Part shown: piece by piece, positions 2,033-47,381 of the stretch
How the letters are laid out: the number at the start of each line of letters is the position of its first letter
Position numbering within the stretch: the stretch's first letter is position 1
Source: Planctomycetota bacterium
GTDB taxonomy: Bacteria > Planctomycetota > SZUA-567 > H5-PLA8
Assembly: GCA_038227875.1 (NCBI GenBank)
Contig: JBBRPR010000004.1
Coordinates: 76,830 to 140,829 of the forward strand
DNA: 64,000 nt
Direction of reading: 5' to 3'
Made by a program: the position numbers and the translations under genes
Notes under the pieces: generated by a model
Databases searched by the model: none
What the model saw: the letters and a program-made list of their open reading frames with translations, nothing else
What the model was told of the DNA's origin: nothing

Positions 2033-5800
<3,768 letters not shown>

Positions 5801-11919: not shown

Positions 11920-12717
11920 ATGAAAAACGACGCCCGCGCCGCAACCTCTCCCACTCCCGCGCTCGACCGCGGGATTGCAATTCTGGAGATGCTGACCGGG
12001 CCGCTGCGCGACGGCGCCACGCGCCACGACATTCAAAAGCGCCTGGCCATCCCGCAAGCCTCCACTTACCGCTTGTTAAAAACGCTGACCGACGCGCGCC
12101 TGATCAGTGAAGACCCGTCGACGGGAAAATTCCGCCTCGGCGCGCGCAGCATGCGCCTGGGTTTCTGGGCGCGCCACGTCTCGCCGGTGGTGAAAGCCGT
12201 GCAACCCCTCCTGCGCGAGTTGTCGCTGCTCACGCACCAGATGAGCACCCTGATCGTCCACGATCACCGCTGGAAATTAATGGTGCTCGAAACCTGGCAG
12301 ACAGAAGGCACGCCGCTGCGCGTGCCCGTTCGTCCCGGCATGTTTTTCGGGCTCGACCAGTCCACCGCGCCGGGCCTCTGCTACCTGACGTTTGAACCGT
12401 CGCTCCGCGCCGAAAAATTCCTCCACCAGATCGCGATCCCCGAACGCCGCGAGCTGATGGACCTGCAGGTCGAGCCGCCGGACAAAAGTATTCTCGACGT
12501 CTGCCAGAATTTCCGCCGACTGGGCTATGCCGTGCAGTCGGTAAATCCAGTAAACTCCGGCCTGGCCGTACCGGTCTACGATCGGCGCGCCAAAGGCGTG
12601 CGCGTGGCCGCCGCGCTGAGCATCGTCTGCGACGCCAAATTCCTCACCCCCCGCCACGTGGAAAAGTGGAGCTCCGCCGCGCGCCGCCTGGCAAAAGAAT
12701 TGGAAGCCGCCATCTGA
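11920..12717 (+). CDS. IclR family transcriptional regulator
   Basis: LDRGIAILEMLTGPLRDGATRHDIQKRLAIPQASTYRLLKTL is an IclR HTH, followed by a C-terminal effector domain. The ATG at 11920 is in frame within the longer track ORF. Confidence 0.85.
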   Translation: MKNDARAATSPTPALDRGIAILEMLTGPLRDGATRHDIQKRLAIPQASTYRLLKTLTDARLISEDPSTGKFRLGARSMRLGFWARHVSPVVKAVQPLLRELSLLTHQMSTLIVHDHRWKLMVLETWQTEGTPLRVPVRPGMFFGLDQSTAPGLCYLTFEPSLRAEKFLHQIAIPERRELMDLQVEPPDKSILDVCQNFRRLGYAVQSVNPVNSGLAVPVYDRRAKGVRVAAALSIVCDAKFLTPRHVEKWSSAARRLAKELEAAI

Positions 12718-12726: not shown

Positions 12727-12760
12727 TCCCTCTCCCCCTGAGGAAGAGTTACTCATAGGT
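12727..12760. repeat. Left copy of a ~35-bp imperfect direct repeat flanking the low-GC island
   Basis: tccctctccccctgagGAAGAGTTactcatagg, compared with ttcctctttccccctgagTGACTATCCctcatgggg at 16035-16068. Confidence 0.5.
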
Positions 12761-12930
12761 AGAGCGGAAAATATTTAGACACTTATAGTGATCCAGCGAA
12801 TTCGGAATGCTGTGATAGATTTTTCCGCTTCGGATTTTCCGTTTTTCATAGGAGGTCGGAACGGAGTATCCAATAGCGGGATTGAACTTCAGTGTCGAGT
12901 TGGTTCCCGAAATAGTTCCTGGAGGAAAGC

Positions 12931-13435
12931 CATGATTAGTAAACCAGGCATTTTTAATTTATTGGATAAATTGAAGATGATTCTACAAAAAAATAATGTT
13001 ACGCATGGCGATTCTTTCAGTATCTGTCCTCGCCCTAATTTGAAAACAGGATGGCGAATACCCGCCATTGAAAAAGGGGTTTACCTTGAACCGTCGCCAA
13101 TGTTAAAATGTCGATTTGAATATGCTGGAACTTGGGTTAATGCCGAGCCCGGCAAGTCCTGGCTTGACCTAGTGGAACTTGAATCGGTATGGGATAATAC
13201 GCGCGTACTTAGGCAATTGGAAATTCGAGAGAAGCATTTTGAAAACTCCATACTTTCAATGGTTCCTAAAACTCATCTTTCGATTTTGGGATTAGATATG
13301 GACGGGAGGGAGGAGTCTTACCTACATTGGAAGTCGGACGCCATTGAACCACGTATAATTCAGTACTATGGCGGTAATGAGAACATATTCGACAACTTTT
13401 ACCAATTTCTTGTCTGGCTCACGACTGAAAAGTAG
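12931..13435 (+). CDS. Hypothetical protein (168 aa) in the low-GC island
   Basis: GGAGG RBS 6 nt upstream of the ATG at 12931. Local GC is ~42% against ~63% for the window. No recognisable domain. Confidence 0.5.
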
Positions 13436-13584
13436 ATCTATTCGATTACGCGCCAACTGAAACCCGAAATCCGCGCGATCCAGGGCCGAAGGCCCGCCGC
13501 TATACCAGCCCAGGGCAACGCCCTGGGAAAAATCCCCCCCATCGCCACAAGGGCTGAAAGCCCGAACTATCAACCCTCTCGAGC

Positions 13585-13780
13585 GCGCCGCCCCGCCGTC
13601 GCTGAAGAAGCGCCCGCCTCAGAGACCTCACGTCGCATGCGTTCCGCCGCCTCGCCCCGCCTCACAACCTCGAAGAGGTTGCGTCTACAAAGCCCAGGGT
13701 TGCGCCGCGAGGCGCTACCCTGGGTTCACGATCATGAATCGAAACCAACCCTGAAAGGGTTGCGGCTTCAAACTGAAGCG
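13585..13780. repeat. ~195-bp GC-rich direct repeat, copy 1, composed of several hairpins
   Basis: Nearly identical to 14008-14197. Contains cccagggttgcgcc-GCGA-ggcgctaccctggg (14-bp stem), caacctc-gaa-gaggttg and aaccct-gaa-agggtt. Confidence 0.75.
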
Positions 13781-14007
13781 CGCCGGGAATAGCGCCACGT
13801 CGTCCCAACCGCCGCCGCACGTTCGCCGCACGCGGCCCGCCGAGTCTCACGCGCGCACCGCCCCGAGTTCCGAACCCGGAGGGTTCACAACCATTAGCCG
13901 GCGGTTGAGCGCAGCGACACCGCCGGACCCGCGCCCCCCAATTGCTCCACATCCCGGAGGGATGCCAGACGAGCCGCACGTCCCACGCCAGAACTCCCTG
14001 CCCCCAG

Positions 14008-14197
14008 CGCGCCGCCCCACCGTCGCTGAAGAAGCGCCCGCCTCAGAGACCTCACGTCGCATGCGTTCCGCCGCCACGCACCGCCTCACAACCTCGAAGA
14101 GGTTGCGCTACAAAGCCCAGGGTTGCGCCGCGAGGCGCTACCCTGGGTTCGCGATCATGAATCGAAACCAACCCTGAAAGGGTTGCGGCTTCGAACT
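14008..14197. repeat. ~195-bp GC-rich direct repeat, copy 2
   Basis: The same element as 13585-13780 with a few substitutions. Confidence 0.75.
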
Positions 14198-14330
14198 AGC
14201 GACTAAGCGCAAGTTCCATCGTTGCTATATCGTCCAAAGAAGCCTTCGTAGGGCTCAGGTCCCTCGAGAAAATTCACAATCAAGCTGTTGTGTTGCGGCG
14301 TGGCGCAAGTATTGGCGAAATTGTTTAGCC

Positions 14331-15671
14331 TTACCGGTCTCGCCTTAGGCTCCGGGTCGCTAACTGTTGTACTCTACTGTCTCCATGCGAGGTCAGCTGC
14401 TGAACTAAAGGCAAAAACTCTGGATGCCAATTCCCCGCTTGTGCTATGTTACTCAATACTAGGAGACTCTCAGGATTCTTAACCTTTCCATAATATTCGA
14501 GAATTCGCTTGAAGATTTCGACTCGATGACGTGCCAATCGATCATAAATTGCCGGCTCCAGAACTATGTTTTGGTATACAACTAAAAATTGGTCGTTGAC
14601 TCGGAAAGCAGATTTCAAAACAGAGTCGAGGCGCTCGGGATCTGTGCAGATATTTGAAAAAATCCAAAGAGCAGTGCTGCTTGTGTTTGGGTCTTTCTCC
14701 ATCGCAATTTTCTCTAAATCGTCAATACGTCTTTGAAGTTCAATCCTGTGCGTACTGCAAAAGTTATTCTCCATGATTATTTCAAGAGCTGAACGCCTGA
14801 CGGGCGTGTCGTGATCATTGAATGCGACTGCAATAATACGCGCGGCATACTTGTCAGGGTCTAACTTTCCCAGAGCTTTCACTGCTCCTACTCGGAGTTC
14901 TAATTTCTCAGAGGTAAGAGCAGATTCCAATAGGCTGTAGCAATTTTCGGCAATTTGCGTTTCTCCCAATGAGTATAAGACCGCCATTTTAACTTCCATT
15001 GATGCTTCATTGAAAGCTCCTTGAAGATCAGCACAAATGTCAGGACCGACATCATGAAAGGCCTGCAGCGAGTATGCGGCAAGTTCTTGATCCTTTAAGG
15101 ACTTTGAACAAAGTTGCCCTCTTAGAAGTGCAAGTTCATTCGATCCGTCACTAAGAGCGTCGGGTAGAAAGCGACACTGCGGGATTGGATTCCCCCAAGC
15201 ATCATCTTCGCCATCTGTTATGTCTAGAAAGCGCTCAACAGGCTGAAAGGGGATATTGAGTTTAGACATTGTTGTCAAGACGTCGCTCAAAGCATCCCGA
15301 AAGGTCTTCTCGTTTCCCTGCGCGTAAAGGTTAGTGCGTGCAAAGTTAGCGATTGACCTAATGGAATTGTACAATTTGTCTGCTTCATTCTTTCTTAGAG
15401 AACTGATTCCTGTCGAGCCGTTTTGCCACTGCATAATTTGTGAAGGGGATTCGGGCAGCCTAGACAACATCAAATCTTCCCATTTGCTGAGATCCCGAAA
15501 ACTCGTGAAGGACCACAGGATAGTTATTGCATGGTCAATTTTTGGAGACACTTGCAATGTCGAGTGTGCATATGCGTCAAGGCATGAAACGAGGTACGCC
15601 ACGCGCGTTCGTTGTAAAACACCGCAAAGATTTTCATACAATTCTTCAAAATTTAAACTCTGTTGGTCCAT
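14331..15671 (-). CDS. Hypothetical HEAT/ARM-repeat protein (446 aa) in the low-GC island
   Basis: HEAT-like repeats (ELRVGAVKALGKLDPDKYAARIIAVAFNDHDTPVRRSALEII). Low GC. No catalytic motif recognised. Confidence 0.6.
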   Translation of the reverse strand: MDQQSLNFEELYENLCGVLQRTRVAYLVSCLDAYAHSTLQVSPKIDHAITILWSFTSFRDLSKWEDLMLSRLPESPSQIMQWQNGSTGISSLRKNEADKLYNSIRSIANFARTNLYAQGNEKTFRDALSDVLTTMSKLNIPFQPVERFLDITDGEDDAWGNPIPQCRFLPDALSDGSNELALLRGQLCSKSLKDQELAAYSLQAFHDVGPDICADLQGAFNEASMEVKMAVLYSLGETQIAENCYSLLESALTSEKLELRVGAVKALGKLDPDKYAARIIAVAFNDHDTPVRRSALEIIMENNFCSTHRIELQRRIDDLEKIAMEKDPNTSSTALWIFSNICTDPERLDSVLKSAFRVNDQFLVVYQNIVLEPAIYDRLARHRVEIFKRILEYYGKVKNPESLLVLSNIAQAGNWHPEFLPLVQQLTSHGDSRVQQLATRSLRRDR

Positions 15672-16034
15672 TTAGTATCCGCCGCGAGGCCAAGTCTTGG
15701 TTTTTCCTGTCGCCGCAATTTGTTCGCCAACTTTCTGCGGTAGGGGCTCTAATCTTTAGGCTACTTGATGAGGTAGTTATAGTACCTGCGATTAAGGAAA
15801 CTCTTGAGAAGAAAGTACGGGCTGAAGGTAAACACGTTTCAAATGTGGTCGCTGAGGCGCTATTGAAATAGGGCTTTAAGGTTTTAAACCTGAATGTGGG
15901 TTAAATGATTTTCTTACCTAAAGGTTTGTCCCTCTAGGCTTGTGCTTATGCGGGATTTTCACTAGAAGTAATGGCTCATAGTTGCAGAGCACTTTTGAGT
16001 ATCCCGATAGAGTATTCCAGAAGTGTTTAAGTTT

Positions 16035-16068
16035 TCCTCTTTCCCCCTGAGTGACTATCCCTCATGGG
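16035..16068. repeat. Right copy of the island-flanking imperfect direct repeat
   Basis: See 12727-12760. Confidence 0.5.
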
Positions 16069-16098
16069 GAGAGGGGACGCGCGCATAGATCGGCCTAA

Positions 16099-16134
16099 CC
16101 CAGGGTAGCGCTGCGGCGCAACCCTGGGCTTTGT
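16099..16134. repeat. Inverted partial copy of the CCCAGGGTTGCGCC...GGCGCTACCCTGGG hairpin element
   Basis: aacccagggtagcgctgcggcgcaaccctgggctttgt is the reverse complement of the hairpin core found in the 195-bp repeats. Confidence 0.6.
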
Positions 16135-16207
16135 CGCCATTAGCCCGTTGGGCTAAGCGAACGGCGAGCGCATCAACCGGTCCTTTCCGGCCGCCCGTCC
16201 GCTCCGC

Positions 16208-16257
16208 GGAAATGAAAAATGACCGATGACCAATGCCCACTGACCAATGACTCCGTT
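16208..16257. repeat. CAATGAC-heptamer tandem element (REP-like), copy 1
   Basis: gaaatgaaaaatgaccgatgaccaatgcccactgaccaatgactccgtt. Related copies form a large inverted repeat at 57186-57327. Confidence 0.65.
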
Positions 16258-16637
16258 AAATGGGCGCGATCCCGTCGCGAATGGGCGTGAACGCACCGGG
16301 ATGAGACCGCGCGTCTTTTTGCAGATGGACACCGCGTCTTCGTCTTTCACGAGAATGATGTTGCAGCCGTGGGAATACTCACGGGAAGTCCTTCGGTCTC
16401 ACGACGGAGCATTTCGGCGTACGGAGCCAGGCCAGGCCGGATTTGAACATGTGCGAGTCGGGCAGTTTGCAAACGCCGCGTTCGCAAGTCCGCGTTTCCG
16501 GACAAAAATGCTTCTCACCCTGCACCGTTTGCCGGAGGCCGAATCGAGTCGCGCGGCGGACGCAAGCGGCGCCCGCGACTCCGGATTTGGCATGACGTTC
16601 GCCATTACTCCTCTCGTCCTGACTGGGGGGCGCAGAC

Positions 16638-17267
16638 ATGAGTCGAATCTCCAATTCATTTCTTACCGCGACGGAAAGCCGCAAGACGCGCCGCGTTGAG
16701 ATCCTGCCCGACGTGGCCGACGTCACACCCACGCCGTCGTCGTTGTGGCGCGCGGTGGATGAGTCGTCGATGAGCCCCGCCAATATTACGTTGCTGTTTA
16801 TCGCCGGGGATTCGATGCACACCAAATTGGTGCGCATGGTTCTGAACTCCGCCGGATTTGTCACGCGGGAGACGGCCGGAACGCTTGACGTCGCTGGAGC
16901 CGCAGTGCCGTCGCTGGTGCTGCTGGATTGGGACGCCGAAGGCGTCGATGGCCACGCCATTCTCAACGCACTCCGCACGGATCCCCAACTGCGCCAGGTT
17001 CCGGTGATCGTGCTGACCAACCGCAGCGTCTCGCAGGGCTGGTGTTGTGAACTGGCGAAGTATTTCGTGAGTTGGGTGCTGGAAAAACCGATCGTCGTGC
17101 TCAGCCTGCCGCAGCTGATCCAGCGCACGATCGCCGCGCGGGGCCACGCGCTCCAAGGCTGCCAGATCGAACGCTCCGCCTTGCTCGTCGAGAACGGCCT
17201 GACCGCCTCCGGAGCGCTCTACAAATCCGTGATCCTCCCGTGTCTGGCGAGCGAGAGAAGTGAGTAG
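16638..17267 (+). CDS. Single-domain response regulator (CheY-like receiver)
   Basis: REC fold LLFIAGDSMHTKLVRMVLNSAGF...SLVLLDWDAEGVDGH...VPVIVLTNRS...KP. No output domain. The start is uncertain; an internal Met lies near 16773. Confidence 0.6.
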   Translation: MSRISNSFLTATESRKTRRVEILPDVADVTPTPSSLWRAVDESSMSPANITLLFIAGDSMHTKLVRMVLNSAGFVTRETAGTLDVAGAAVPSLVLLDWDAEGVDGHAILNALRTDPQLRQVPVIVLTNRSVSQGWCCELAKYFVSWVLEKPIVVLSLPQLIQRTIAARGHALQGCQIERSALLVENGLTASGALYKSVILPCLASERSE

Positions 17268-17400: not shown

Positions 17401-17476
17401 ACCGTGGTTGCAAATTTGCAACCACGAATTCACGCACACTGCGAACGTTCCACGTGGAACATTCACACTGTGGCGT
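17401..17476. repeat. Tandem palindromes: cgtggttgcaaatttgcaaccacg, then a second copy of the GTTCCACGTGGAAC REP-like element
   Basis: cacgcacactgcgaacgttccacgtggaacattcacactgtggcgt, compared with 1901-1953. Lies between convergent genes. Confidence 0.6.
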
Positions 17477-17480: not shown

Positions 17481-19967
17481 TCAAGGACGTGCGGCGAGGA
17501 AGCCCCAGAAATAGACCGCCGTCAGCGTCGTGGTGTCGAGACAGTTCTCGTTCATCATCGGGTAGATCCCGAAGTCGATGTACTGCTCGTTGGCCGGCCA
17601 CGCGAAGAAATCCGGAACCATCTTCGGAGGCTGAAAATTCAGGTACCACTGCTGCACCCAGCCGCTCATGCCCCGCGCCATTTTGCTGGACTCATCGCCC
17701 TGCCCAAACGGGATATAGCCGACAGGCTGGTTCGGAAACTGCCCCGAAATCGCGGAATCCACTTTGAACGGAAAGTGCACGAACTTCTTCCCGATACCCG
17801 GGCAGTACGAAAGATTGTCCGGGTTCGCCCCGAGGCTGTAGTTGCACGCTTGGACGGCCGCGGCCAGATGCGAGCTCTTCTTCGAGAGCACATACGCCCG
17901 GATCAGATTGTACCCCCGCACGCCCGGCGCAGCGAAGTACGTGCACGGCCCGATCACCGGCAAATCCGTGCGCGCGCCGTTGATGATCTCAAACGCGTTC
18001 TTGTGGCTGAAGTCGATGGCGTAGTCGGCGTACGCGGAGAACATCTCGACGGCGCGCTTCTTTAACGCCGCGTCGGCCAGCTCATCAGGCAGCCGCGCAT
18101 AGGTAAAATCGGCATCCGGCTGATCGAGGTACCGCGGCGCTTCCGGCTTGGTGAGCTCCGTGAGCTGCTTGAAGGCCTCGTGGTACGCAGGCTTCTTGGT
18201 GGTGGCGAAGAGTTCCAACGCGGCCCGGCAGCGCGAGCCCTTGATCGAGTTGCCGAAGTTCGGCCACATGTCTTTCTTGGCGATGAGGCGCTTGTAGACG
18301 GGGTCGCTGACGTTGCTGTGGCTCTCGGCCCAGTCGTAGGCTTTGATGGCCGACTCGAGGTACTCGGCGGACTGCTTCTTGTCGAAGGCGCTAAGAATAC
18401 GCGAAGCCTTCGCGGCGCACGCGGTGTAGTCGTAGCTGGTGACCTGATCGGGCGCGTAGACGCCGGCGGCTTTCACCATCGGGCTTGTCTGCGCTTTGCG
18501 GCAGCCCCAGCCTTCGCCGTATCCGCCGCGGACGCCGCCATCGGGCATCTGCAGGCGCTTGAAACAGGGCAGCTGCCACAGGGCTTCGTCGAGAAGATCG
18601 GGAATGGCGTTGGCCTGCTCGTCCTTGGGCAAAGACAGCTTCAGATTCGCGAAGTACTCGGGCGCGAGTTCGTACAGTTCGAGCATGATCGACGTGACGG
18701 CAAGATGGTGGCCGAGCGTATCCCAATCGCCGGCGTCCTGGTAGCCGCCCCAAACTCCCGTGACGCGCTCGAGTTTGCCGGCCTTCGCCAACTCGGCGAG
18801 ATTGGCGCCGCGCTCGCCTTCCTGGCCTTCGTGGACGGACATGGTGAGCTGGTAGAACTCCACGCCATCGTCGGGATGGAACGCCCGCGCGCGTTTGAAG
18901 GCGCACATCGGCGGTCCGAGTTCGATGCCCTGGCGCTGGGTGAGAATGCCGAGCATCACGGTCTTGAACGGCGTCTCCCAGACGTCGCGCTTGAGGCTGA
19001 ATTTTTCGCTGATGCCGATGCCGGGAACGTAGACGACGTAATCCCCGGGCGTGTTGAAGGCGCTGAAATCGAGGCGCTGCACGGCGGTGTTCGTGTAGTC
19101 CTTTTCCTCGTGGACACAGAGGCGCTCAACGGCGTCTTGAGCCTTGGTCAGTTCCGGTTTTCCGGTGAAGACGCTTTTCCCGCTCGTGGCGTCGAGGAGT
19201 TCGAAGCTGTCAACGTGGTGCGTGTAGCCGACGCTTTTTCCAGCCTGCGCGCCGAGCCAGATTGAAAGATACGCACGCTTGAACGGATCGTCAGGACGGT
19301 ACCCGGTCTGGATCGCGTGGATGGCGTCGCTGCGCGTGGTCTTCGGCGCGTGGGTGTAGGTGACGGATTCCTTGTTGGTGTTGACGCCGGGGAAGTGGAG
19401 CGTGTAGGTCGCGCCGTCTTTCAGCGGTGCGGGGAGCTTCAACGAAATCGTGTAAATGAACGGCGCGGGGTGCGCGTTGTTGCCGTCGGGCTTGCCTTTG
19501 CGGTAGACGGTCGTCGGCGCGGTGGGCTGCGCGAAGGCCGTGTCGTCGGCCGATTGAATCGAATACGCGGCGGGTGTGTCGACGGCGGATTCGTCGAGGA
19601 TCTTGCCGGCCATCTTGCTTTCCACGAACAGATGGGCGCCGTCGGGCGAGACGGCGGCGACGCGCGTGCGCTGGCCGTTGACGGAACGGAAGAGCGCCTT
19701 GTCGTGTTCCTCGACCAGCGCACCATTCTTCACGGTGTAGTGCACTTCCTTCACGTTCTCGTCGACGATCTCGTCGCCGGGCTGGGACGTGTACGACGTG
19801 AGCTGATTGGGGACGTACGTGCCGGCTTGCAGGGTGATCGACAGTATGTCCGGCGCGACAGCGCAGACGTGGTCGATGGCGGGGCCGTCGGCCGGATGAT
19901 CCATCGCCAGCGCGAGGGGGCTCACAAAAAGTGCGAGGGTGAAAAGCGCGGTGCGGTGGGTCATCAT
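17481..19967 (-). CDS. Secreted glycoside-hydrolase-like protein (GH9-like DAGD motif, (alpha/alpha)6-type) with N-terminal Ig-like region
   Basis: Signal peptide MMTHRTALFTLALFVSPLALA. GGYQDAGDWDTLGHH is GH9-like. NPDNLSYCPGIG near the C-terminus. GAGG RBS upstream. Confidence 0.6.
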   Translation of the reverse strand: MMTHRTALFTLALFVSPLALAMDHPADGPAIDHVCAVAPDILSITLQAGTYVPNQLTSYTSQPGDEIVDENVKEVHYTVKNGALVEEHDKALFRSVNGQRTRVAAVSPDGAHLFVESKMAGKILDESAVDTPAAYSIQSADDTAFAQPTAPTTVYRKGKPDGNNAHPAPFIYTISLKLPAPLKDGATYTLHFPGVNTNKESVTYTHAPKTTRSDAIHAIQTGYRPDDPFKRAYLSIWLGAQAGKSVGYTHHVDSFELLDATSGKSVFTGKPELTKAQDAVERLCVHEEKDYTNTAVQRLDFSAFNTPGDYVVYVPGIGISEKFSLKRDVWETPFKTVMLGILTQRQGIELGPPMCAFKRARAFHPDDGVEFYQLTMSVHEGQEGERGANLAELAKAGKLERVTGVWGGYQDAGDWDTLGHHLAVTSIMLELYELAPEYFANLKLSLPKDEQANAIPDLLDEALWQLPCFKRLQMPDGGVRGGYGEGWGCRKAQTSPMVKAAGVYAPDQVTSYDYTACAAKASRILSAFDKKQSAEYLESAIKAYDWAESHSNVSDPVYKRLIAKKDMWPNFGNSIKGSRCRAALELFATTKKPAYHEAFKQLTELTKPEAPRYLDQPDADFTYARLPDELADAALKKRAVEMFSAYADYAIDFSHKNAFEIINGARTDLPVIGPCTYFAAPGVRGYNLIRAYVLSKKSSHLAAAVQACNYSLGANPDNLSYCPGIGKKFVHFPFKVDSAISGQFPNQPVGYIPFGQGDESSKMARGMSGWVQQWYLNFQPPKMVPDFFAWPANEQYIDFGIYPMMNENCLDTTTLTAVYFWGFLAARP

Positions 19968-23252: not shown

Positions 23253-23726
23253 ATGGCGGAAGCTGAAAAGTCAGAGCGGCTACAGTTTTCATTGCTGACA
23301 ATGTTTGTCGTCGCTCTTCTTGCCGGCGGCGTTCTGGGAATTTCAGTGGCCATATATAAAGTGATTCAGGATGACGGCAACGCTGCACAAACACGTCATG
23401 CGACCGATAGCGCTTTTCGAGTTGTCGAGCGCTTCATGGAGGCGCATCCAGGCCAGTGGCCTCAATCCTGGCGCGAACTGGAAACCGTAAAGGATCCAAG
23501 CACCGGAAAACCAATGGATTTGTATACTATTCAAAGACGTGTCAAAATTGACTTCACGCTCGGACTTGAAGATCTGGAAAAGCAGTCGGAAAGCACTTTC
23601 ACTGCAATTCAAGCCATTGGTCCCACGTATTCTGATTCGGAGAGCGCCAACCAAGCCAACCAGATCATTGAGTTGGCGAAGAAGTACGTCAAACTTCAGG
23701 CTCATGCGCCAGTATCGCAAAAATAG
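23253..23726 (+). CDS. Hypothetical membrane-anchored protein (157 aa)
   Basis: N-terminal TM segment FSLLTMFVVALLAGGVLGISVAIY. Slightly lower GC. Immediately upstream of the giant gene. Confidence 0.5.
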   Translation: MAEAEKSERLQFSLLTMFVVALLAGGVLGISVAIYKVIQDDGNAAQTRHATDSAFRVVERFMEAHPGQWPQSWRELETVKDPSTGKPMDLYTIQRRVKIDFTLGLEDLEKQSESTFTAIQAIGPTYSDSESANQANQIIELAKKYVKLQAHAPVSQK

Positions 23727-23859
23727 CGTTTGGACGCGCCGGGGTCGTTCCGAAGTCTGGTTTGGGACGCTAATTACCCGAAATGTGTGCAACGAATGCC
23801 GGGGTGCGGGGTCTAAAGTCGCAAATCGTCTGACGGGATTACTAAAAGGGAGCACCATC

Positions 23860-26800
23860 ATGTCAAATTCGCGAATACCTCTGGTTCTGTTCGTGGCGCT
23901 GCTGGCGGGGGCGGCGCGGGGGAACGAAGTCGGGTACGTGGAGGATTTTGCGCTTTCGGCCAACCGCGGGGATACGCTCAAGCAGCTCATTCCCGGATCT
24001 GAAGATTACTACTATTACACCTGCCTGACGTACCAGCAGACCGGCGCGTTCGACAAGGTCGACGAGCTGCTCAAGCTGTGGATTGAACGCCACGGGCGCA
24101 CGGCGCGCGTCGAAGAGATCGTCAACCGCAACGCGCTGCTGGCGTACGAAAAGGACCCGAAGAAGTCGCTCGACTTTCTGCGCTGGCGGCTGGGCTTGAA
24201 CTTCGATCACCGCAAGGAAATCATCGACCAGAAGCCCAACCAACCCACGCGCCTGGATCCCGCCGTGATCGCGAGCGAGACGATGACCCGCGACGCGCTC
24301 AATCATTACGGCAACCTGCAGGGCATCGAAGATTCGGCGCTGGAACTGCTTTCGCAGCAGAAGCTGACCGGCGAACAGCGCCGCGAACTGCTCGGCCGAT
24401 TGCATCGCCCGGACCTGACCAACATGGTCCAGCTGGTGATGGAAGATTTGCGCTACAAGTACAGCTCGGGTTTCGGTTCGATGGAAATCCACAGACAGAT
24501 GACGCTCGCGCAATTGGACGAACTGGTGAAGGCCATGCCGGAGCTGGCCAACCAGGTGAATTTCATCGGCGCCTACCTGACCAAGCTGCAGCCGACGCCG
24601 GACGTCGACGCGCAGTTGAACGCGAAGGAGCGGCTGGCGTGGTTCGACCGCGTCTGGGCGTTTGTGGCGAAGTTGCAGCCGGCGCACAATTCTCTGAAGG
24701 CGCACGTCCTCTTCCACCGCCTGGAATTCGACCGCACGCAGGGCGTGTACGACAAGGACCGCTTCATGGAATACCTGAAGCTTCCGCGCCCCACCGCTTA
24801 CATGCGGCCGGAGTACCTGCAGCGCACGTACCAGATCAATGGCGGCCAGGCGCAGGCGAATTTGAATCAGGATTTCTCGGCGTCGACGCTGATGGTCGTG
24901 GTCAACACCGACGACGAATTGGTCCGCGATTACCTGCTCCACTTCTTTCAGAAGGAAGAGGACTTCGCGCCGTACCTGGTCTACGTTCGCGACGATTATA
25001 TCAAGGATATCTTCGCGGAAGCCAAGATCGTCAACGGCATCGGCGACATGGAGAAGTGGTATTCGCTGCTGAACAACCCCACGCGCTACCAGGCGCTGAA
25101 AGACCGCGTCGACATCGATTTCGCGCCGGAGAACAAGCACTTCTTCACGGCCAACGACGCGGTGAGCCTCGACGCCGACGTCAAGAACGTGAAGACGCTG
25201 ATCGTGAAAGTGTTTGAAATCAACGCGCTCAATTATTACCGCGAGAAGAACCGCGAAGTCGACACGTCCATTAATCTCGACGGACTGGTCGCCAACGACG
25301 AGAAGACCTTTACCTACGACGAAGCGCCGCTCCATCGCGTGCGCCGCCATTTCGATTTTCCGACGCTGAAGAAGCCCGGCGTGTACGTCGTAGAATTCAT
25401 CGGCAACGGCACCAGCAGCCGCGCGCTGATCCACAAGGGGAAGCTGCGATTCATCGAGCACACCGGCACGGCCGGGCACGTCTTCAGCGTGATGGATGAA
25501 GAGAACAAGCCGGTGAAGGACGCCAGCATCTGGATGGCCGGGCGGGATTACACGGCCGACAAGGACGGCGAGATCCACATTCCCTTCAGCACCGCGCCGG
25601 GACAGCAGACGATCGTGCTGCATCAGGGCGAGTTTGCGAGCTTCGACACGTTCGACCACAAGGGCGAAGTCTACACTCTGAACGCCGGGTTCCACGTCGA
25701 CCGCGAAGCGCTGCTCAAGCGGCAGAAAGCCAGCGTGCTGGTGCGGCCGGAGCTGACGCTGACGGGCAATCTCGCCACGGTGGGATTGCTGGAAGAAGTG
25801 ACGTTGCAGATCCAGACGACCGATCGCGATGGCGTGGGGACGACCAAGGAAATTCCCGACTTCAAGCTTTTTGACGACAAGGAATCGGTCTACGAATTCT
25901 CGACGCCCGACAACATCATCCAGATCGGCTTCACACTGCGGGCACGGGTGAAGAGCCTGACGCTGCAGAAGAAGATCGACCTGGCCACGTCGCGTACGTT
26001 CGGCCTCAACCGCATTGACCTGTCGGAGAAGATCGAAGCACTGCATCTCAATCGCACGGCTGACGGGTACTTCCTGCAGCTGCTGGGCAAGACCGGCGAG
26101 ACCAAGGCCGACCGGCCCGTGTCGCTGAACTTCAAGCACGTCGATTTCCGCGAACCAGCGCACGCGGCGCTGCAGACCGATGCCGACGGCAAGATCGTGC
26201 TGGGCCAGCTGCCCGACATTATGCTCGTGAGCGCCACGCTGCAGGACGGGCAGGCGTACTCGTGGATCCTGCCGCGCGACAATCACAATTATCTTTCGAC
26301 CGTGCACGGCAAGCCCGCGCAGGCGATCCATCTGCCGTACATGGGCAGCGAAAAAGCGCCGACGCGCGCGGAGTTCTCGCTGCTGGAGCTGCGCGGTTCG
26401 CAGGCCGACGGCACGGGTACGTTTGTGCGCGATTGCTTCGAGAATCTGGCGATCGCCGACGGCTTCGTGGAGATCAAGGGCCTGACGGCCGGCGACTACT
26501 CGCTGCTGCTGAAGAAAGCCAACGAGCTCGTGTTGATCCGCATCACTGATGGCGAAATCCGCGACGGCTACGCGCTGGGCGACGTCCGCACGCTGGAAAT
26601 CAACAACGCCGAACCGCTCCAGATCACCAGTGTCGACGCCAACGCCGACACGCTCAAGGTTCAGCTCAAGAACGTGACGAAGTACACGCGCGTGCATGTC
26701 GTCGCCGACCGCTTTCTGCCGGCGTATTCGATCTTCACGCAGCTCTCGACGCCCGGCCTGCAGGAACCGGAGAGCGTGGTCTGGACGAAGATGATTTCGC

Positions 26801-29800
26801 ATTACCTGACCGGCCGCAACATTGGCGATGAGTACCGTTACATTCTGGAACGGCGCTACGCGCCGAAGTTCGCCGGCAACATGCTGGCGCGGCCGAACCT
26901 GCTGCTCAATCCGTTCACGCTGCGCACGACCGACACGGCGCAGGACGATCTGAACGGCCAGGGCAATTTCGGTTCGCGTTCCGGCGGCGGACGGCGAGCG
27001 ATGATCACGCGCCACGGTGGAACCCGCGCCGACGAGACCGATTCGGCGCCGTGGGCGAATCTGGATTTCCTGCCCGAGCCGTCGACGCTGCTGGCCAATC
27101 TGGTGCCGGACAAGGACGGCGTGGTGAACATTTCGCGCAAGGACCTCGGCGCGCACCAGAACGTCCGCATCGTGGCCGTCGACACGCAGAACACGGTCGT
27201 GCGCGACGTCGCGCTGCAGGAAGTTGCGCTGAAGCCCAAGGACCTGCGCCTGGCGACGGGCCTGGACCCGGCCAAGCACTTCACCGAGCAGAAGGAAATC
27301 ACGCTGCTCAACGCGGGGCAGTCGCTGGTGATGGACGACATCACCACGTCGAGCCTGGAGTCGTTCGACACGCTGCGCAAGGTCTATGGACTCTACACGA
27401 CGCTCAGCCGTGACCCGCGCCTGAGCGAGTTCGCGTTCATTCTGGAATGGCCGAAGCTGAAAGACGACGAGAAGCGCGCGGCGTATTCCAAGTACGCGTG
27501 CCATGAATTGAATTTCTTCATCTACAAGAAAGATCCGGACTTCTTCAAGGCGGCGCTGCTGCCGTACCTGAAGAACAAGAAAGACAAGACGTTCATGGAC
27601 CACTACCTGATCGGCGACGACATGACGGCATACACGCAGCCGTGGAATTACGATCGCTTGAACACGGTCGAACAGATCCTGCTCGCGCACCGCGTTCAGG
27701 CGGAGCTGAATCCGGCCGTGCGCCACGCGAAGGAAATTTACGATCTGATGCCGCCGGACATCGAGCGCTTCAATTTCCTCTTCAAGACGGCGCTGCAGGG
27801 GAATGCGCTTGAGACGGCTGATGGCGTCGGCTTCCGCGAAGCGACGGGGAAGATTGTCGACAACAACCGCAAGTTGAACGACGCCCGCGATCAATTGAGG
27901 GCGAGTAATGAGGAGGGCAAGGCGGATGCTGCGCCCGCCGCCAACGGATTTGCGCTTGGTGGCGCTGCCGGACAGCCCAGCAACGGGCCTGCGTCGCCAC
28001 CGCCCCCGGCCGTTGCCGCCGCGAGACCCGCCGCACCCGCGAAAACCGAGCAGTTGGCCAAAAAGCTGGCTGACCAACGTTCCGACAAGAATAAGAGCGG
28101 CGAATTTAAAGAGCGTGAAAAGTTGAAGGACGCCGCCAAGAAGCCGATGGCGCAGGCGGCTCAAAGAGCTGCGGAGGCGGACGACGCCAAGGCGGACAAG
28201 CAGCAATTGGAGGGCTTGGCCGTCGATCTCGAAAGCCGCGACCAGGCGCAGCAACAGATGCTCTACCGGAAGCTCGACAAGACCGAGGAGCTTGCTGAGA
28301 ACAATTACTTCAAGCTGCCGATCGAACAGCAGCTCGCGTCACTGGTGACGGTCAACGCGTTCTGGAAGGACTTCGCGGCCAACGCCAACAAGGGACCGTT
28401 CCTTTCGGGGAACCTGGCCGAAGCGTCGCGCAACTTCACGGAAATCATGTTCGCGATGTCGGTGCTGGACCTGCCTTTCGAAGCCGGCAAGCACGCTTCG
28501 GAATTCGCGGCGCAGAAGATGACGCTCAACGCCAAGAGCCCGATCGTGGCGTACCACAAGGAGATCAAGGAAAGTCCCGCGGCGGAGAAGACGCCGGTGC
28601 TGGTCAGCCAGAATTTCTACCGCGCCGACGACCGCTTCCGCTTCGAGAACAACGAACGCTTCGACAAGTACGTCACCGACGAATTCCTGGTGCATGTCGT
28701 CTACGGCTGCCAGGTGGTGCTGACCAATCCGACGTCCTCACCGCAGAAACTGGATCTGCTGCTGCAGATCCCGCGCGGAGCGATGCCGGCGACCAACGGT
28801 TTTTACACCAAGGGGCCGTTCGTGCAGTTGGCGCCGTATTCGACGACGACGTTCGATTACCACTTCTACTTCCCGCTGCCGGGCGAGTTCACGCACTATC
28901 CCGTCCACGTTTCACGCAACGGCAAGATGATCGCGTCGGCCGCGCCGGTGATTTTGAAGGCCGTCGCCAAGCTGACGAAGATCGACACCGAGTCGTGGGA
29001 TTACATCTCGCAGAACGGCACGGACGAGCAGGTGATCACCTACCTGGATGCCAACAACATCCACCGCATCAATCTCGATCGCATCGCCTGGCGCATGGGC
29101 AACGCGGCGATGTTCAAGAAGGTCACCGAGCTGCTGACCCGCCGCCACGATTACAACAATACGCTCTGGTCGTACGCGATCGTGCACAACGACGTCCCGG
29201 CGATCCGTGAATTCCTGGCGCACGCCGATGGCTTCGTGGCGCAGACGGGGCTGTGGCTGGAAAGTCCGCTGCTGGCGATCGATCCGGTGGCGCGCAATTT
29301 CTATCAGCACCTGGAGTACAGCCCGCTGGTCAACGCGCGCGCACACCGGCTGGGCAAAGAGAACAAGATCCTCAACGACCGATTCTACGAGCAGTACGAA
29401 CGGATCCTGCATGTCCTGAAGTACAAGCCGGAACTCAGCGACGCCGACCGGCTCTCGGTCTCCTGCTACATGCTGCTGCAGGACCGCGTCGCCGACGGAC
29501 TGGCGATGTTCGCGAAGGTCAATCCGGAAAAGATCGCGACGAAGATCCAGTACGATTACGTAAAGGCGTTCGGCGACTTCTATTCCGACGAACACAAGAC
29601 GGCGCGCGAAGTGGCGGCGACGTACAAGGACTATCCGATCGACCGCTGGAAGAACCGCTTCGCCGATATCGTCGCGCAGCTGGACGAAGCGGCGGGCAAG
29701 AACGCCGTGGCCATCGACAAGGAAGACCGGACGCAGGCGATGGGCCAGCTGGCGGCCGGCGAGCCGAGCTTTGAGTTCAAGATCGACGGCAAGAAGGTGC

Positions 29801-30336
29801 ACGTGAACTTCCAGAACCTGCAGGGTGCCGAGGTCAATTTCTACCCGATGGACATCGAGCTGCTCTTCTCGAGCAACCCGTTTGTGCATGACGTCAACGA
29901 TCAGTTCTCGTTCGTGAAGCCGGTGAAGACTACGACGCTGAAGTTCCCGGAGAAGACGAAGGAGTTCGAATTCGACGTGCCGCCAGAGTTCCTCAATTCG
30001 AACGTGATGATCGAGCTGAATGCCGCCGGCACGCGGAAGTCGCAGGCGTATTACGCCAACGCGATGACCGTGCAGACGATTGAGAACTACGGGCAGGTCA
30101 AGGTCGTCAACCCAAAGACCGAGGCGCCGATGCCGAAGGTGTACGTGAAGGTTTACAGCAAGATGAAGGACGGCGAGGTGCGCTTCTACAAGGACGGCTA
30201 CACGGACCTGCGCGGCCGCTTCGATTACGCGTCGCTGAGTACCAACGAACTGGACAACGTAGCGCGGTTTGCGGTGCTGGTGATGAGCGACACCGACGGC
30301 GCGATCGTGCGCGAGGCGAATCCGCCGAAGCGGTAA
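23860..30336 (+). CDS. Giant secreted protein (2158 aa) of unknown family
   Basis: RBS AAGGGAG, then the ATG at 23860. Signal peptide MSNSRIPLVLFVALLAGAARG. An alpha-helical N-terminal ~500 aa, then multiple beta-sandwich-like repeats, then a low-complexity Ala/Pro/Lys/Gln-rich central segment. No catalytic motif recognised. Confidence 0.85.
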   Translation: MSNSRIPLVLFVALLAGAARGNEVGYVEDFALSANRGDTLKQLIPGSEDYYYYTCLTYQQTGAFDKVDELLKLWIERHGRTARVEEIVNRNALLAYEKDPKKSLDFLRWRLGLNFDHRKEIIDQKPNQPTRLDPAVIASETMTRDALNHYGNLQGIEDSALELLSQQKLTGEQRRELLGRLHRPDLTNMVQLVMEDLRYKYSSGFGSMEIHRQMTLAQLDELVKAMPELANQVNFIGAYLTKLQPTPDVDAQLNAKERLAWFDRVWAFVAKLQPAHNSLKAHVLFHRLEFDRTQGVYDKDRFMEYLKLPRPTAYMRPEYLQRTYQINGGQAQANLNQDFSASTLMVVVNTDDELVRDYLLHFFQKEEDFAPYLVYVRDDYIKDIFAEAKIVNGIGDMEKWYSLLNNPTRYQALKDRVDIDFAPENKHFFTANDAVSLDADVKNVKTLIVKVFEINALNYYREKNREVDTSINLDGLVANDEKTFTYDEAPLHRVRRHFDFPTLKKPGVYVVEFIGNGTSSRALIHKGKLRFIEHTGTAGHVFSVMDEENKPVKDASIWMAGRDYTADKDGEIHIPFSTAPGQQTIVLHQGEFASFDTFDHKGEVYTLNAGFHVDREALLKRQKASVLVRPELTLTGNLATVGLLEEVTLQIQTTDRDGVGTTKEIPDFKLFDDKESVYEFSTPDNIIQIGFTLRARVKSLTLQKKIDLATSRTFGLNRIDLSEKIEALHLNRTADGYFLQLLGKTGETKADRPVSLNFKHVDFREPAHAALQTDADGKIVLGQLPDIMLVSATLQDGQAYSWILPRDNHNYLSTVHGKPAQAIHLPYMGSEKAPTRAEFSLLELRGSQADGTGTFVRDCFENLAIADGFVEIKGLTAGDYSLLLKKANELVLIRITDGEIRDGYALGDVRTLEINNAEPLQITSVDANADTLKVQLKNVTKYTRVHVVADRFLPAYSIFTQLSTPGLQEPESVVWTKMISHYLTGRNIGDEYRYILERRYAPKFAGNMLARPNLLLNPFTLRTTDTAQDDLNGQGNFGSRSGGGRRAMITRHGGTRADETDSAPWANLDFLPEPSTLLANLVPDKDGVVNISRKDLGAHQNVRIVAVDTQNTVVRDVALQEVALKPKDLRLATGLDPAKHFTEQKEITLLNAGQSLVMDDITTSSLESFDTLRKVYGLYTTLSRDPRLSEFAFILEWPKLKDDEKRAAYSKYACHELNFFIYKKDPDFFKAALLPYLKNKKDKTFMDHYLIGDDMTAYTQPWNYDRLNTVEQILLAHRVQAELNPAVRHAKEIYDLMPPDIERFNFLFKTALQGNALETADGVGFREATGKIVDNNRKLNDARDQLRASNEEGKADAAPAANGFALGGAAGQPSNGPASPPPPAVAAARPAAPAKTEQLAKKLADQRSDKNKSGEFKEREKLKDAAKKPMAQAAQRAAEADDAKADKQQLEGLAVDLESRDQAQQQMLYRKLDKTEELAENNYFKLPIEQQLASLVTVNAFWKDFAANANKGPFLSGNLAEASRNFTEIMFAMSVLDLPFEAGKHASEFAAQKMTLNAKSPIVAYHKEIKESPAAEKTPVLVSQNFYRADDRFRFENNERFDKYVTDEFLVHVVYGCQVVLTNPTSSPQKLDLLLQIPRGAMPATNGFYTKGPFVQLAPYSTTTFDYHFYFPLPGEFTHYPVHVSRNGKMIASAAPVILKAVAKLTKIDTESWDYISQNGTDEQVITYLDANNIHRINLDRIAWRMGNAAMFKKVTELLTRRHDYNNTLWSYAIVHNDVPAIREFLAHADGFVAQTGLWLESPLLAIDPVARNFYQHLEYSPLVNARAHRLGKENKILNDRFYEQYERILHVLKYKPELSDADRLSVSCYMLLQDRVADGLAMFAKVNPEKIATKIQYDYVKAFGDFYSDEHKTAREVAATYKDYPIDRWKNRFADIVAQLDEAAGKNAVAIDKEDRTQAMGQLAAGEPSFEFKIDGKKVHVNFQNLQGAEVNFYPMDIELLFSSNPFVHDVNDQFSFVKPVKTTTLKFPEKTKEFEFDVPPEFLNSNVMIELNAAGTRKSQAYYANAMTVQTIENYGQVKVVNPKTEAPMPKVYVKVYSKMKDGEVRFYKDGYTDLRGRFDYASLSTNELDNVARFAVLVMSDTDGAIVREANPPKR

Positions 30337-32262: not shown

Positions 32263-33087
32263 GGATTAGATCCTGGGAAGTCGCGTCGTCGTTGCTTCCT
32301 TGAATACACCGTTGACGATACCGGGAGGGGCATCTGAGTGCCATTTTGTTGTATTATTTACAACTCGTTAACTCTAACGAAATCAAGTCTATGCAACCGC
32401 AGCTCTAAAGGAACTATGTCAATAGCGCTCCAGCTCCTTAAAATAAATGATCTGGATGTTGCCTTGCCGTGCGCATCTCAAACAGTGCGGTGGGTTAAAA
32501 TCGCGTTGACTGCGCCTCCACAGTCACGCGGTTCTTCTACATCAGCAGCGGATACTTTGAGAGTTTCCATGCGATGCTGCGTGACGATCCTGGTGATGTT
32601 TCGCCCTACGAGACGGAGAAGGCTGCGCGCAGAGTTCTGATCGCCCTTTTCTACAATTGCATAAAGTATAACATTGACTTAAGATGGCTTTAATCCTGAA
32701 TCAAAGGCCCGCCCGAATGCGCTCCCCCACGTGCAGCGCTATGCTTTTCTAATACAAAACCAAGTTGCACATGGGCGCCATTAAGGTTTTACACACCATG
32801 TGGTTGTGGATTTTGTACAGGATGTGCAGTTGATCGGACGCAGATTGAGACATGAATCGCGGAAAAATATGTCGCGATTTACGAAATCTAAACTACAGTT
32901 ATGTCGAATGTTTTAGTAACGGCTACATACGCGCGAACTTCCAAAAGGTGGCAGAGAAAAAGCGAGAAAAATTCGCACAGTGCCCCGTGCAATTTTCGCG
33001 GCGCTGGAAGTTTTGAAATGTGGTCCACGCATTGCATTCTCGGGCGTCGAGTCATTCATTTGAACGTTGCACGTGGGAGTCGCAAAA

Positions 33088-34539: not shown

Positions 34540-35775
34540 ATGAAGGATACGCATCACAACCCGCTGAGACCGCGCGCCTTCACTCTGGTGGAGATGATGG
34601 TGGTGCTGACCGTCAGCCTGCTGCTGATGACGATGATCGTGCCGGTCTTCCGGCTCTCGACGAAAACCGTGCAGGTGGTCGAACGGAAGCTGGCTGTCTA
34701 CGAATCGGCGCGCAACATCCTCGACCTGGTCGAATCGGAACTGCAGCTGGCCATCACCAATGAAAAGGGCGAACACTTCTCGATCAAGCACGTGTCGTGG
34801 ATGGACACCGATCCGTTCACGCCGCCGTTTACCGGTCCAGTGATTTTGCCTGGAACGATGGACACCGGAAACATCGCGTACAAGCACGACCGGCGCATCA
34901 GTGACGCGGTGAACTACCTGCGACTGGAAGGCCACGGCACCAATTCGAATTACGTGCCGTCCATGCGCCAGTTTCCCGGCGGCAAATTCTTTCCACTCAG
35001 CTATCCGATTCTTGAGGCCACGTTTCCTGAAGCGTGGAAATGCTCGATGCGTTCCACGCTGCTGTACCAGCACGATTTCGAACTCGGCGAAGAAGCGGAC
35101 TCCGACGCCGGCCAGAAACGCTGGAGCCGTTCCGAACAGCTCGGCGACGTGGGCCAGGTGGAACTCGCTTTTATTTTTGAAACGGTTGCCAATCAATGGG
35201 AAGGCATCCAGGCGGCCAAGACCATGTACGACCAGACCGCCAATTACCTGGGACCCGGGCGCGAGATCAAGGTACCGCATCTGGTTGGAGGATCGGGCGG
35301 ACCCGGCCAATTGGAATTCCAGCGCCAGCGCCGCGGAGGCCAGGTCAAGATTATGGACCTTGCTGTTTCCTACTGGGACGACACCCAGAAAAAATACATG
35401 GATTTGCCGGAAAATACGGTGATCTACTTCTTCCCCATGCCCAAGGCCGTGCGCACGACCATCACGGTCTGCGATGTCGACAAGCGCACCACGCTGACGC
35501 TCAGCCGCATCGTCCATCTGCCCTGCGGCTCCGGCGATGGCAACGCGCTGTTGAACCCAGGTGTCGTGGCAGACACGGCCTACTTCACTGACCTGAAGCA
35601 GCCCAACAACACGATGCACGCGGTCTACAACCGGACCAAGTACCTGCCGTCGCTGCCCAACGCGTTCAATGGCGACGGTTCGCGCGGTGACCTCACCACC
35701 ACGTCCGATTTTTCGTCCGCGACCGAAAACAGCATCATCACGCAGGATGGCGTCAAACCGTATCAATGGCCGTAG
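34540..35775 (+). CDS. Prepilin-type N-terminal domain protein (pseudopilin 3, 411 aa)
   Basis: PRAFTLVEMMVVLTVSLLLMTMIV. 19-bp gap from the upstream gene. Confidence 0.75.
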   Translation: MKDTHHNPLRPRAFTLVEMMVVLTVSLLLMTMIVPVFRLSTKTVQVVERKLAVYESARNILDLVESELQLAITNEKGEHFSIKHVSWMDTDPFTPPFTGPVILPGTMDTGNIAYKHDRRISDAVNYLRLEGHGTNSNYVPSMRQFPGGKFFPLSYPILEATFPEAWKCSMRSTLLYQHDFELGEEADSDAGQKRWSRSEQLGDVGQVELAFIFETVANQWEGIQAAKTMYDQTANYLGPGREIKVPHLVGGSGGPGQLEFQRQRRGGQVKIMDLAVSYWDDTQKKYMDLPENTVIYFFPMPKAVRTTITVCDVDKRTTLTLSRIVHLPCGSGDGNALLNPGVVADTAYFTDLKQPNNTMHAVYNRTKYLPSLPNAFNGDGSRGDLTTTSDFSSATENSIITQDGVKPYQWP

Positions 35776-35809
35776 AGCGTTTTGGGAATCGGATTTGGAA
35801 CTGCAGCAC

Positions 35810-39082: not shown

Positions 39083-39157
39083 ACGCCAGCATGCAGTTGA
39101 TCGACGATGTAACGACGGGCCGCAGTGCGGAGGATGACGTTCGTGTTGGAGACCACA

Positions 39158-46655: not shown

Positions 46656-47381
46656 TCAATAGTCCAGCAACATTGGCAAGTGATGTTCCACTGAAAGTTT
46701 GGATAACTCATAGAACACTGCGAAGGCGAAGCGTGCACCACTCTCCAGCGGACTGCCATGGTCAGGGCAACTTCGTCGCCAGTTAGAAATCGAAGTTGAA
46801 TCCACGTTCCATGTCCGGGAATTGAGTACCTGAAGTTCTTTGTGTAGCGCCACGCTGGAGCCTAAGAAGATTTCCTTTCCACTCAGACAGGGCGCCGCGA
46901 ACGTAAAATCGAAATTGGCGGGTAGCCACCATTCGGCACCCGATAAAAGTTGCTTGTACTTTGTTCCCGAATTTGCACTCGCCCTTTGTAAATAAATTGG
47001 ATCTTCATGCCAATCTTTTACGAACCCTTTAGGACATGGTTTCTCGGTTTGTTCGGAATACGCCGTCCAAAGCAGCAGGTGGCCGTAACAATCCCACGCC
47101 GGTTTATCAGTAAAGTAAGGACGTTCGCCTTGTTCGCTCCAGTCAACATCAGACACTCCGTGCGGTTTTAACGCCGCCGCCAAGTCGTTGCGCCATTGCT
47201 CCGCAGCGCTCCTGATAACCGCCGGATCTGTAATGGCGTCCGCAGGCTCATTCGCGCGTACAACCGTGACCTGAGGAATAGCTCCAGCCTTCGCCGCCTG
47301 CTGTACAACATTGAGCCAATCGTGAAGGTAATACCGAGTCAGAGTGCCGACATACACATCAAGCCCCATGTCGCCTCCCAT
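46656..47381 (-). CDS. Hypothetical protein (241 aa) in a lower-GC patch
   Basis: No recognisable motif. Local GC is reduced between 46560 and 47480. Confidence 0.5.
   Translation of the reverse strand: MGGDMGLDVYVGTLTRYYLHDWLNVVQQAAKAGAIPQVTVVRANEPADAITDPAVIRSAAEQWRNDLAAALKPHGVSDVDWSEQGERPYFTDKPAWDCYGHLLLWTAYSEQTEKPCPKGFVKDWHEDPIYLQRASANSGTKYKQLLSGAEWWLPANFDFTFAAPCLSGKEIFLGSSVALHKELQVLNSRTWNVDSTSISNWRRSCPDHGSPLESGARFAFAVFYELSKLSVEHHLPMLLDY

Follow-up and report, generated by a model that had tools for sequence, protein, structure and literature searches.

A low-GC islet in a Planctomycetota genome that probably carries an orphan immunity gene

Description

The locus described here lies in a 64,000-nucleotide stretch of the genome of a Planctomycetota bacterium (GTDB lineage Bacteria; Planctomycetota; SZUA-567; H5-PLA8; NCBI GenBank assembly GCA_038227875.1, contig JBBRPR010000004.1, positions 76,830 to 140,829 of the forward strand), which is called the window throughout and whose positions serve as coordinates. 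At 12728-16075 is an islet of low G+C content (GC) with two convergent open reading frames (ORFs) 900 bp apart, ORF-A (12932-13435, + strand, 167 aa, 41% GC) and ORF-B (14331-15671, - strand, 446 aa, 45% GC). It follows an IclR gene (11920-12717, + strand), and ORF-A starts 214 nt after the IclR stop codon (TGA, 12715-12717), with a GGAGGA Shine-Dalgarno sequence 5 nt before its ATG. An earlier note on this DNA had reported two genes on opposite strands, one of them for a 446-aa HEAT-repeat protein, and this holds; the protein that it listed as a 168-aa unknown exists as well, at a length of 167 aa.

The GC drop begins just 3' of the IclR stop, as the note had it, but its figure of about 42% against about 63% elsewhere does not describe the interval 12727-16270 taken whole, which is 50% GC. 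Low GC is found in block 1 (12770-13445, 41.3%) and block 2 (14216-16030, 44.7%), beyond which it is back to about 60%, and the rest of the window is at 60-61%. Since GC-rich sequence splits the low-GC DNA, the island consists of two low-GC blocks around a GC-rich core (13446-14215, 770 bp, 66% GC). GC at third codon positions (GC3) is 0.42 in ORF-A and 0.43 in ORF-B vs 0.79-0.84 in eight surrounding host genes. The tetranucleotide distances of blocks 1 and 2 to the host are 0.70 and 0.61 (maxima for host pieces of the same sizes, 0.53 and 0.41), and the two blocks are nearer to each other (0.41) than to the host; the distance of the GC-rich core to the host falls inside the host's own range.

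The islet is bounded by an inverted repeat, imperfect and 55-57 nt long (12728-12784 vs 16075-16021, about 79% identity), no strand being assigned to either arm. The left arm, IR-L (12728-12784), starts 10 nt past the IclR stop and lies 147 nt upstream of the ORF-A start, and the right arm, IR-R (16021-16075), lies 349 nt upstream of the ORF-B start; each arm is thus upstream of one convergent gene, in identical relative orientation. The outer ~44 nt of IR-L form an imperfect palindrome, and its inner end enters low-GC DNA. The match between the arms was unequalled in 2000 shuffles and in 1153 other windows of real sequence, and their gapped local alignment scored 47 (shuffles 17.3 +/- 2.1, maximum 30). 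The pair had been noted earlier as imperfect direct repeats of ~35 bp; the repeats are real and not due to chance, and, as the outer ~40 nt of each arm are palindromic, they can also be seen as a 39-nt direct repeat (72%), but a non-palindromic loop and an inner GGAAAA/TTTTCC tail, in an alignment read by eye, fix the orientation as inverted. The hairpins of the arms are weak (z = -1.1 for IR-L and -1.7 for IR-R), and a role as terminators was ruled out by this weak stability and the lack of a T-run. The target-site duplication that the note had proposed to look for is not present, the flanks being different (CTGCCCAT vs GACGCGCG). Neither the window nor 206 kb of fetched loci, including loci from metagenome-assembled genomes (MAGs) of Verrucomicrobiota and Planctomycetota, yielded a further copy of the repeat; of two exact patterns searched in Joint Genome Institute (JGI) metagenomes, one had no match and the other matched two unrelated palindromes.

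A word-indexed protein search with ORF-A returned nothing, not even ORF-A itself, which is therefore absent from that collection (NCBI annotations included). Exhaustive search with HMMER placed ORF-A in a family that has 165 cluster representatives when E <= 1e-3 is required and 92 under E <= 1e-10, almost all of them 157-180 aa long, and the family alignment contains one invariant Arg and nine near-invariant positions, every one of which is kept in ORF-A. AlphaFold2 with the family alignment produced a confident alpha+beta model of ORF-A (predicted local distance difference test, pLDDT, 91.7); a model folded without the alignment (pLDDT 33) was discarded. The family has no model in Pfam, NCBIfam or PADLOC, and its profile returned only noise from the PDB. 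Two members, P0082 and P0088, carry an extra leucine-rich repeat (LRR)-like region of ~200 aa, C-terminal and N-terminal respectively, which recalls the fusions of polyimmunity proteins, both features being judged by eye.

Six relatives of ORF-A were placed on contigs, and in five of these contexts the gene follows closely on a large upstream ORF, the junction ranging from a 20-nt overlap to a 13-nt gap; this ORF encodes an RHS protein in two cases, a PT-HINT protein in one and an unannotated protein in two. The gene for P0008 (38% identity) overlaps by 4 nt that of an upstream protein of 686+ aa, and its neighbourhood continues with Imm33-like, RHS-WHH toxin, SUKH, RHS-AHH toxin and Imm11 genes. 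P0010 overlaps the stop of an RHS protein gene (1822+ aa), P0011 overlaps the gene for an RHS/YD-shell protein (1907 aa), and P0012 and P0013 follow, after gaps of 13 nt and 2 nt, the genes for a PT-HINT protein and a protein of 629+ aa. None of the contexts seen has a HEAT-repeat neighbour.

The upstream proteins of P0010, P0011, P0012 and P0013 differ in their N-terminal regions (RHS and PT-HINT among them) and have a common C-terminal domain of ~120 aa, located at L005:5093-5467 (RHS), L006:1225-1599 (PT-HINT; also in L007), L032:5568-6017 (RHS/YD) and L033:1513-1887 (also in L034), with an ORF-A-family gene next downstream in every copy. A C-terminal domain common to proteins with differing N-terminal regions marks a toxin/immunity pair (Zhang et al. 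2012, PMC3482391), and the arrangement seen here fits that logic. The domain has the motif GHxPD..AGG...NSS.G, in which HxxD (GHxPD) is invariant in all four sequences. This motif aligns with Tde1 (8fzz_A, E 0.028) over the catalytic HxxD region of that Ntox15 DNase, whose HxxD active site has been described (PMC10470768). Two of the four domains match Pfam Ntox15 (PF15604) below its threshold, the best at E 1.9e-4 and one at 12.3 bits vs a cut-off of 22.5.

As its relatives lie directly after polymorphic toxins, ORF-A is most likely an immunity gene, with a divergent Ntox15/Tde-like DNase as the predicted target of its product. The window contains no such toxin domain in any frame and no toxin remnants upstream of ORF-A or ORF-B; given this, and its distance from the IclR stop, ORF-A is an orphan here. 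A 41-aa tblastn match at 17712-17834, inside a GH9 gene, was unsupported by profile search and was rejected as spurious.

ORF-B consists of HEAT/ARM-type repeats over residues ~176-446 (Pfam HEAT_2, E 2e-10), and its residues 1-200 are similar to nothing found. It matched only itself among 5.8 billion protein clusters and had no relatives in plasmids, phages or viral contigs. In the PDB it matched designed alphaRep HEAT proteins only, in NCBIfam there was only a weak NblB-like match, and in PADLOC a weak, partial match to the generic HEAT model HEAT-ARM_XIII (E 8e-7, 106/1972 profile positions); similarity to the extra domains of the long ORF-A-family members was not significant. HEAT-repeat immunity proteins are a listed class, with members in verrucomicrobia and planctomycetes, and Imm-HEAT genes are encoded beside the toxin Tox-REase-7 (PMC3482391); ORF-B resembles this class in its HEAT repeats. 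With such a class known and LRR-like fusions present in the ORF-A family, a role as a HEAT or other repeat-type immunity protein is plausible for ORF-B. Nothing ties ORF-A and ORF-B to each other functionally. The suggestion in the earlier note of a two-gene defence or toxin module thus survives as defence in the broad sense, for ORF-A, whose relatives follow polymorphic toxins, but not as a two-gene module, and the islet is no toxin module either: a toxin domain is absent from the window, the genes are convergent and 900 bp apart, relatives of ORF-A lack HEAT neighbours in the contexts seen and ORF-A has no PADLOC match.

The GC-rich core, which the note had as ~800 bp of hairpin repeats between the two genes, is a block of host-like composition without assigned strand between the 3' ends of ORF-A and ORF-B, and it is dense in stable hairpins resembling repetitive extragenic palindromic (REP) sequences. 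At 13482-13527 (- strand) is a two-hairpin element that resembles the Acido-Lenti-1 motif (Rfam RF01687; PMC2864571) over the full length of the model, at 31.2 bits vs a gathering score of 37 (E 3e-4 to 5e-5). A 193-nt composite repeat occurs twice on the + strand, at 13582-13774 and 14006-14197, with 97-98% identity; the starts of the copies lie 424 nt apart, and they do not make up a true tandem array. A triple-hairpin unit with a stable DNA fold (-32.2 kcal/mol, z = -5.9) and no Rfam family is formed by the 3' ~105 nt of the repeat (13658-13766 and 14082-14189). The 20-mer AAAGCCCAGGGTTGCGCCGC from this unit was found in 22 stretches of species-representative genomes, mostly on several contigs each of one Verrucomicrobia subdivision 3 MAG, one Planctomycetota MAG and one Akkermansia-labelled MAG, and in those MAGs (loci L009-L027) the whole unit is present at 77-97% identity, often with several copies at one locus. 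Changes in hairpin 1 are compensatory, and there is almost no variation in hairpins 2 and 3. A RAYT-type transposase was not seen.

The REP-like elements reported earlier at the right edge are there, as hairpins at 16090-16160 and a dispersed repeat, both outside the island. Host-type REP-like hairpins (16097-16160, no strand, fold z = -4.7) include at 16097-16137, just beyond IR-R, a copy of hairpin 2 from the triple-hairpin unit in inverted orientation, and the repeat with AATGACC-type heptads at 16200-16278 (+ strand) has a second copy of 79 nt at 57270-57348 (81% identity). Metagenome contigs end or begin at these repeats: L002 stops 4 nt short of the first composite repeat, at window position 13578, and the starts of L003 (~16520) and L004 (~16230) fall within or just past the right-flank repeats, which suggests that the repeat is multi-copy. 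In being GC-rich, stable, multi-copy and clustered in intergenic DNA, these hairpins are like the repeats of REP, bacterial interspersed mosaic element (BIME) and miniature inverted-repeat transposable element (MITE) type. The host-like repeats, with a core unit dispersed in MAGs of the Planctomycetes-Verrucomicrobia-Chlamydiae (PVC) group, are either later invaders of the islet or older than it.

L002, from a 98.7%-identical strain, contains the left part of the island, where IR-L is 98% conserved and ORF-A is intact with five synonymous and three non-synonymous changes; the nine differences in the IclR gene are all synonymous. On the metagenome contig of the close strain only a 58-aa C-terminal fragment of ORF-A was called as a gene. 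The only more distant relative, L001, has 86% nucleotide identity over the beta-helix and IclR genes, and its homology ends exactly at the IclR stop. The presence/absence comparison that the note had proposed for the 3' end of IclR could be carried only halfway and gave no clean empty site, since L001 is non-syntenic on either side of the two-gene block; a scan of genome contigs with IclR returned nothing. About 6.5 kb from its IclR gene, L001 has adjacent genes (L001 12709-13801) for a secreted ribonuclease (PF00545) and its inhibitor barstar (PF01337), a pair that the window lacks.

No integrase, transposase or recombinase domain was detected in the island or in 41 scanned ORFs of the window (smaller ORFs elsewhere were left unscanned), in agreement with the earlier note, and the window has no tRNA or tmRNA as integration target. 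Between IR-R and the ORF-B start is a low-GC non-coding leader (15672-16020, - strand) whose six frames are broken by stops or have no start codon. A remnant of an RHH-type antitoxin, spotted by eye at 15761-15871 (+ strand), was dropped as it has no start codon and no Pfam support. To the right of the islet is a receiver-domain protein (16638-17267; Response_reg, 26.5 bits vs a gathering score of 30.2, E 8e-6), which the note had seen at the island's edge; it is present, but its GC3 of 0.79 is host-like and it is resident DNA outside the island.

Several other features of the window were recorded. A 38-nt palindrome, CACACTGTGAATGTTCCACGTGGAACGTTCGCAGTGTG, has copies at 1909-1946 and 17435-17472 (87% identity), the second between the GH9 gene, whose stop it closely follows, and the response-regulator gene, and could be a shared operator or terminator. 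A 241-aa ORF at 46656-47381 (- strand), beside an AsnC-family regulator, has no Pfam match and a GC3 of 0.52 vs 0.8 in the host, and may be another acquired gene. The 804 bp at 32263-33066, which are 47% GC and lack a convincing ORF, lie upstream of genes that carry prepilin-type N-terminal methylation motifs. Tandem repeats of 18 bp (6 aa) form a long array at 2439-2960 within the gene for a 1255-aa PKD/He_PIG surface protein (2033-5800, - strand). Large ORFs without a Pfam match at E <= 0.01 are 23539-30336 (2265 aa), 35669-39082 (1137 aa) and 39125-40762 (545 aa), all on the + strand.

Discussion

We consider it likely that 12728-16075 is a horizontally acquired low-GC islet with an orphan immunity gene, ORF-A. 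Foreign composition, a specific repeat pair and the lack of a detected integrase fit accessory DNA that was horizontally acquired and is not self-mobile, and to that extent the passively mobilised accessory cassette of the earlier note agrees with the GC3 values, the bracketing repeats and the ORF scan. The islet would have been acquired into a GC-rich genome, which its repeats would place in the PVC group and probably among the Verrucomicrobiota, with the 55-nt inverted repeat before each gene marking the edges of the foreign DNA. Host-type REP-like repeats would later have spread into the stretch between the two genes and into the right flank. ORF-A would be a cytoplasmic protein of ~19 kDa, from a family that appears normally to be translated right after, and to co-vary with, one toxin domain; as an orphan it would bind and neutralise an HxxD DNase injected by a competitor, a form of acquired interbacterial defence. 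For ORF-B a donor of similar AT-richness is probable, and its product may be a toxin binder or a second immunity protein, of the repeat type.

Several observations weigh against this reading. The immunity role of ORF-A is read from gene neighbourhoods, six in number, and one of these is different: P0014 follows a gene for a macro-like protein after a 52-nt gap. Distant relatives (27-32% identity) stand alone on Methylobacterium plasmids, near partition and anti-restriction-type genes. The Ntox15 link of the toxin domain is weak, as it lies below Pfam thresholds. The ORF-A model has no significant match in the PDB (best E 0.69) or BFVD, and likeness to SUKH amounts to one SUKH_5 match (E 0.041) when 66 family members were compared with Pfam, the family being otherwise not SUKH-like. 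As ORF-B has no relatives, its role is a guess. A promoter scan found sites no more numerous than in shuffled sequence, which bears on expression, and no clean empty site was found in the relatives. A cognate toxin could also sit elsewhere in the genome, of which 64 kb are in view.

The arrangement could also have arisen as two independent single-gene units, each made of a ~55-nt element, an AT-rich leader and a gene, placed head-out around a pre-existing REP-like cluster, in which case the inverted repeat would be a shared regulatory or junction element and not the ends of one element. Each gene does point inward from its own copy of the repeat, the relative orientation being the same for both, the centre is host-like with the same REP family also beyond the right edge, and a HEAT protein was never seen beside ORF-A relatives. 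We nevertheless regard two units as unlikely, for the near-identical GC3 of the genes and the closeness of the blocks to each other also fit a single donor and event, the spacing from repeat to start is unequal (147 vs 349 nt), and no other gene was found to be preceded by the ~55-nt element. Slightly less probable still is a 3.35-kb non-autonomous mobile cassette, along the lines of mobile insertion cassettes, pdif modules or rAID/integron-like cassettes, in which the 55-nt terminal inverted repeats are recognised by a transposase or tyrosine recombinase whose gene lies elsewhere and which moves orphan immunity genes. For such a cassette speak an inverted repeat that is highly non-random and stands exactly at both GC transitions, arms that are imperfect palindromes with an 8-9-nt centre like many recombinase sites, and the link of polyimmunity and rAID-1 loci with XerC/D-type recombinases and repeated intergenic sequences (PMC3482391; 10.1101/471110); against it count the missing target-site duplication, the lack of a recombinase or transposase in the scanned ORFs, the lack of any other repeat copy in the window, the 206 kb of loci or (as exact patterns) the JGI metagenomes, and the fact that no empty site was observed.

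The genes might instead be resident, fast-evolving and lineage-specific, unrelated to interbacterial conflict, with the repeats as ordinary hairpins and the ORF-A family serving otherwise, for example in plasmid anti-defence or accessory functions. The stand-alone Methylobacterium plasmid relatives, near ParB, toprim and zincin-like (ArdC-type) genes, would suit this, as would the P0014 context, which is not beside a toxin, and the absence of ORF-A from the searched protein collection. We hold it very unlikely: a GC3 gap of ~0.4 to every neighbour is hard to maintain in resident genes, and of the six closer relatives five are encoded immediately behind a large protein (two RHS, one PT-HINT), four of these large proteins having a C-terminal domain in common. 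A bolder reading is likewise very unlikely, namely that the 55-nt palindromic repeats are the ends of an unseen, recombinase-independent-looking type of cassette, mobilised in trans, that shuttles orphan immunity genes among PVC-group bacteria, and that ORF-B founds a new kind of HEAT immunity protein or toxin sensor working with ORF-A.

Taken as a horizontally acquired islet with an orphan immunity gene, the locus has known counterparts, as low-GC orphan immunity clusters with repeated intergenic sequences have been described (10.1101/471110; PMC7400221). [quoted passage not shown] It differs in having one or two convergent genes and no co-directional array, in showing no XerD-like recombinase or mobile-element gene in the scanned ORFs, in its phylum (probably of the PVC group), in an immunity family outside Pfam and in an immunity function that is a predicted one. 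rAID-1 and integron-like arrays need at least two co-directional low-GC genes with repeated intergenic sequences, whereas the islet genes are convergent, each after a 55-nt element. Like a transposon, MITE or mobile insertion cassette, the islet has terminal inverted repeats, but no target-site duplication, other copy or clean empty site was found. The islet would work like the orphan-immunity and AID loci of other phyla, and it does not qualify as a rAID-1 cluster, an integron-like array or a transposon.

The relatives of ORF-A likewise follow RHS and PT-HINT toxins with one variable C-terminal domain, as in polymorphic toxin systems (Zhang et al. 2012, PMC3482391), but the window is unlike polymorphic toxin and polyimmunity loci in having no toxin, toxin cassette or tandem same-strand immunity array. 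ORF-A itself matches none of the immunity families in Pfam (SUKH/SMI1_KNR4, Imm1-Imm74). With the Tde/Tdi system (PMC10470768) there is likeness in the HxxD motif of the paired toxin domain, which aligns with the Tde1 active-site region, and in orphan immunity genes being commoner than toxins; the likeness of the toxin domain to Ntox15 is sub-threshold, and the ORF-A model has no significant match to a solved chain.

Apart from its probable immunity gene, the locus is small and fairly ordinary horizontally acquired accessory DNA. ORF-A, which was unannotated, now belongs to a sizeable family of putative immunity proteins (165 cluster representatives) without a Pfam model, and this family has a partner in a putative DNase domain of RHS and PT-HINT toxins that is Ntox15-like and had not been described. 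Known mainly from gut Bacteroidales and from enterobacteria, the orphan-immunity strategy probably operates in environmental bacteria of the PVC group too.

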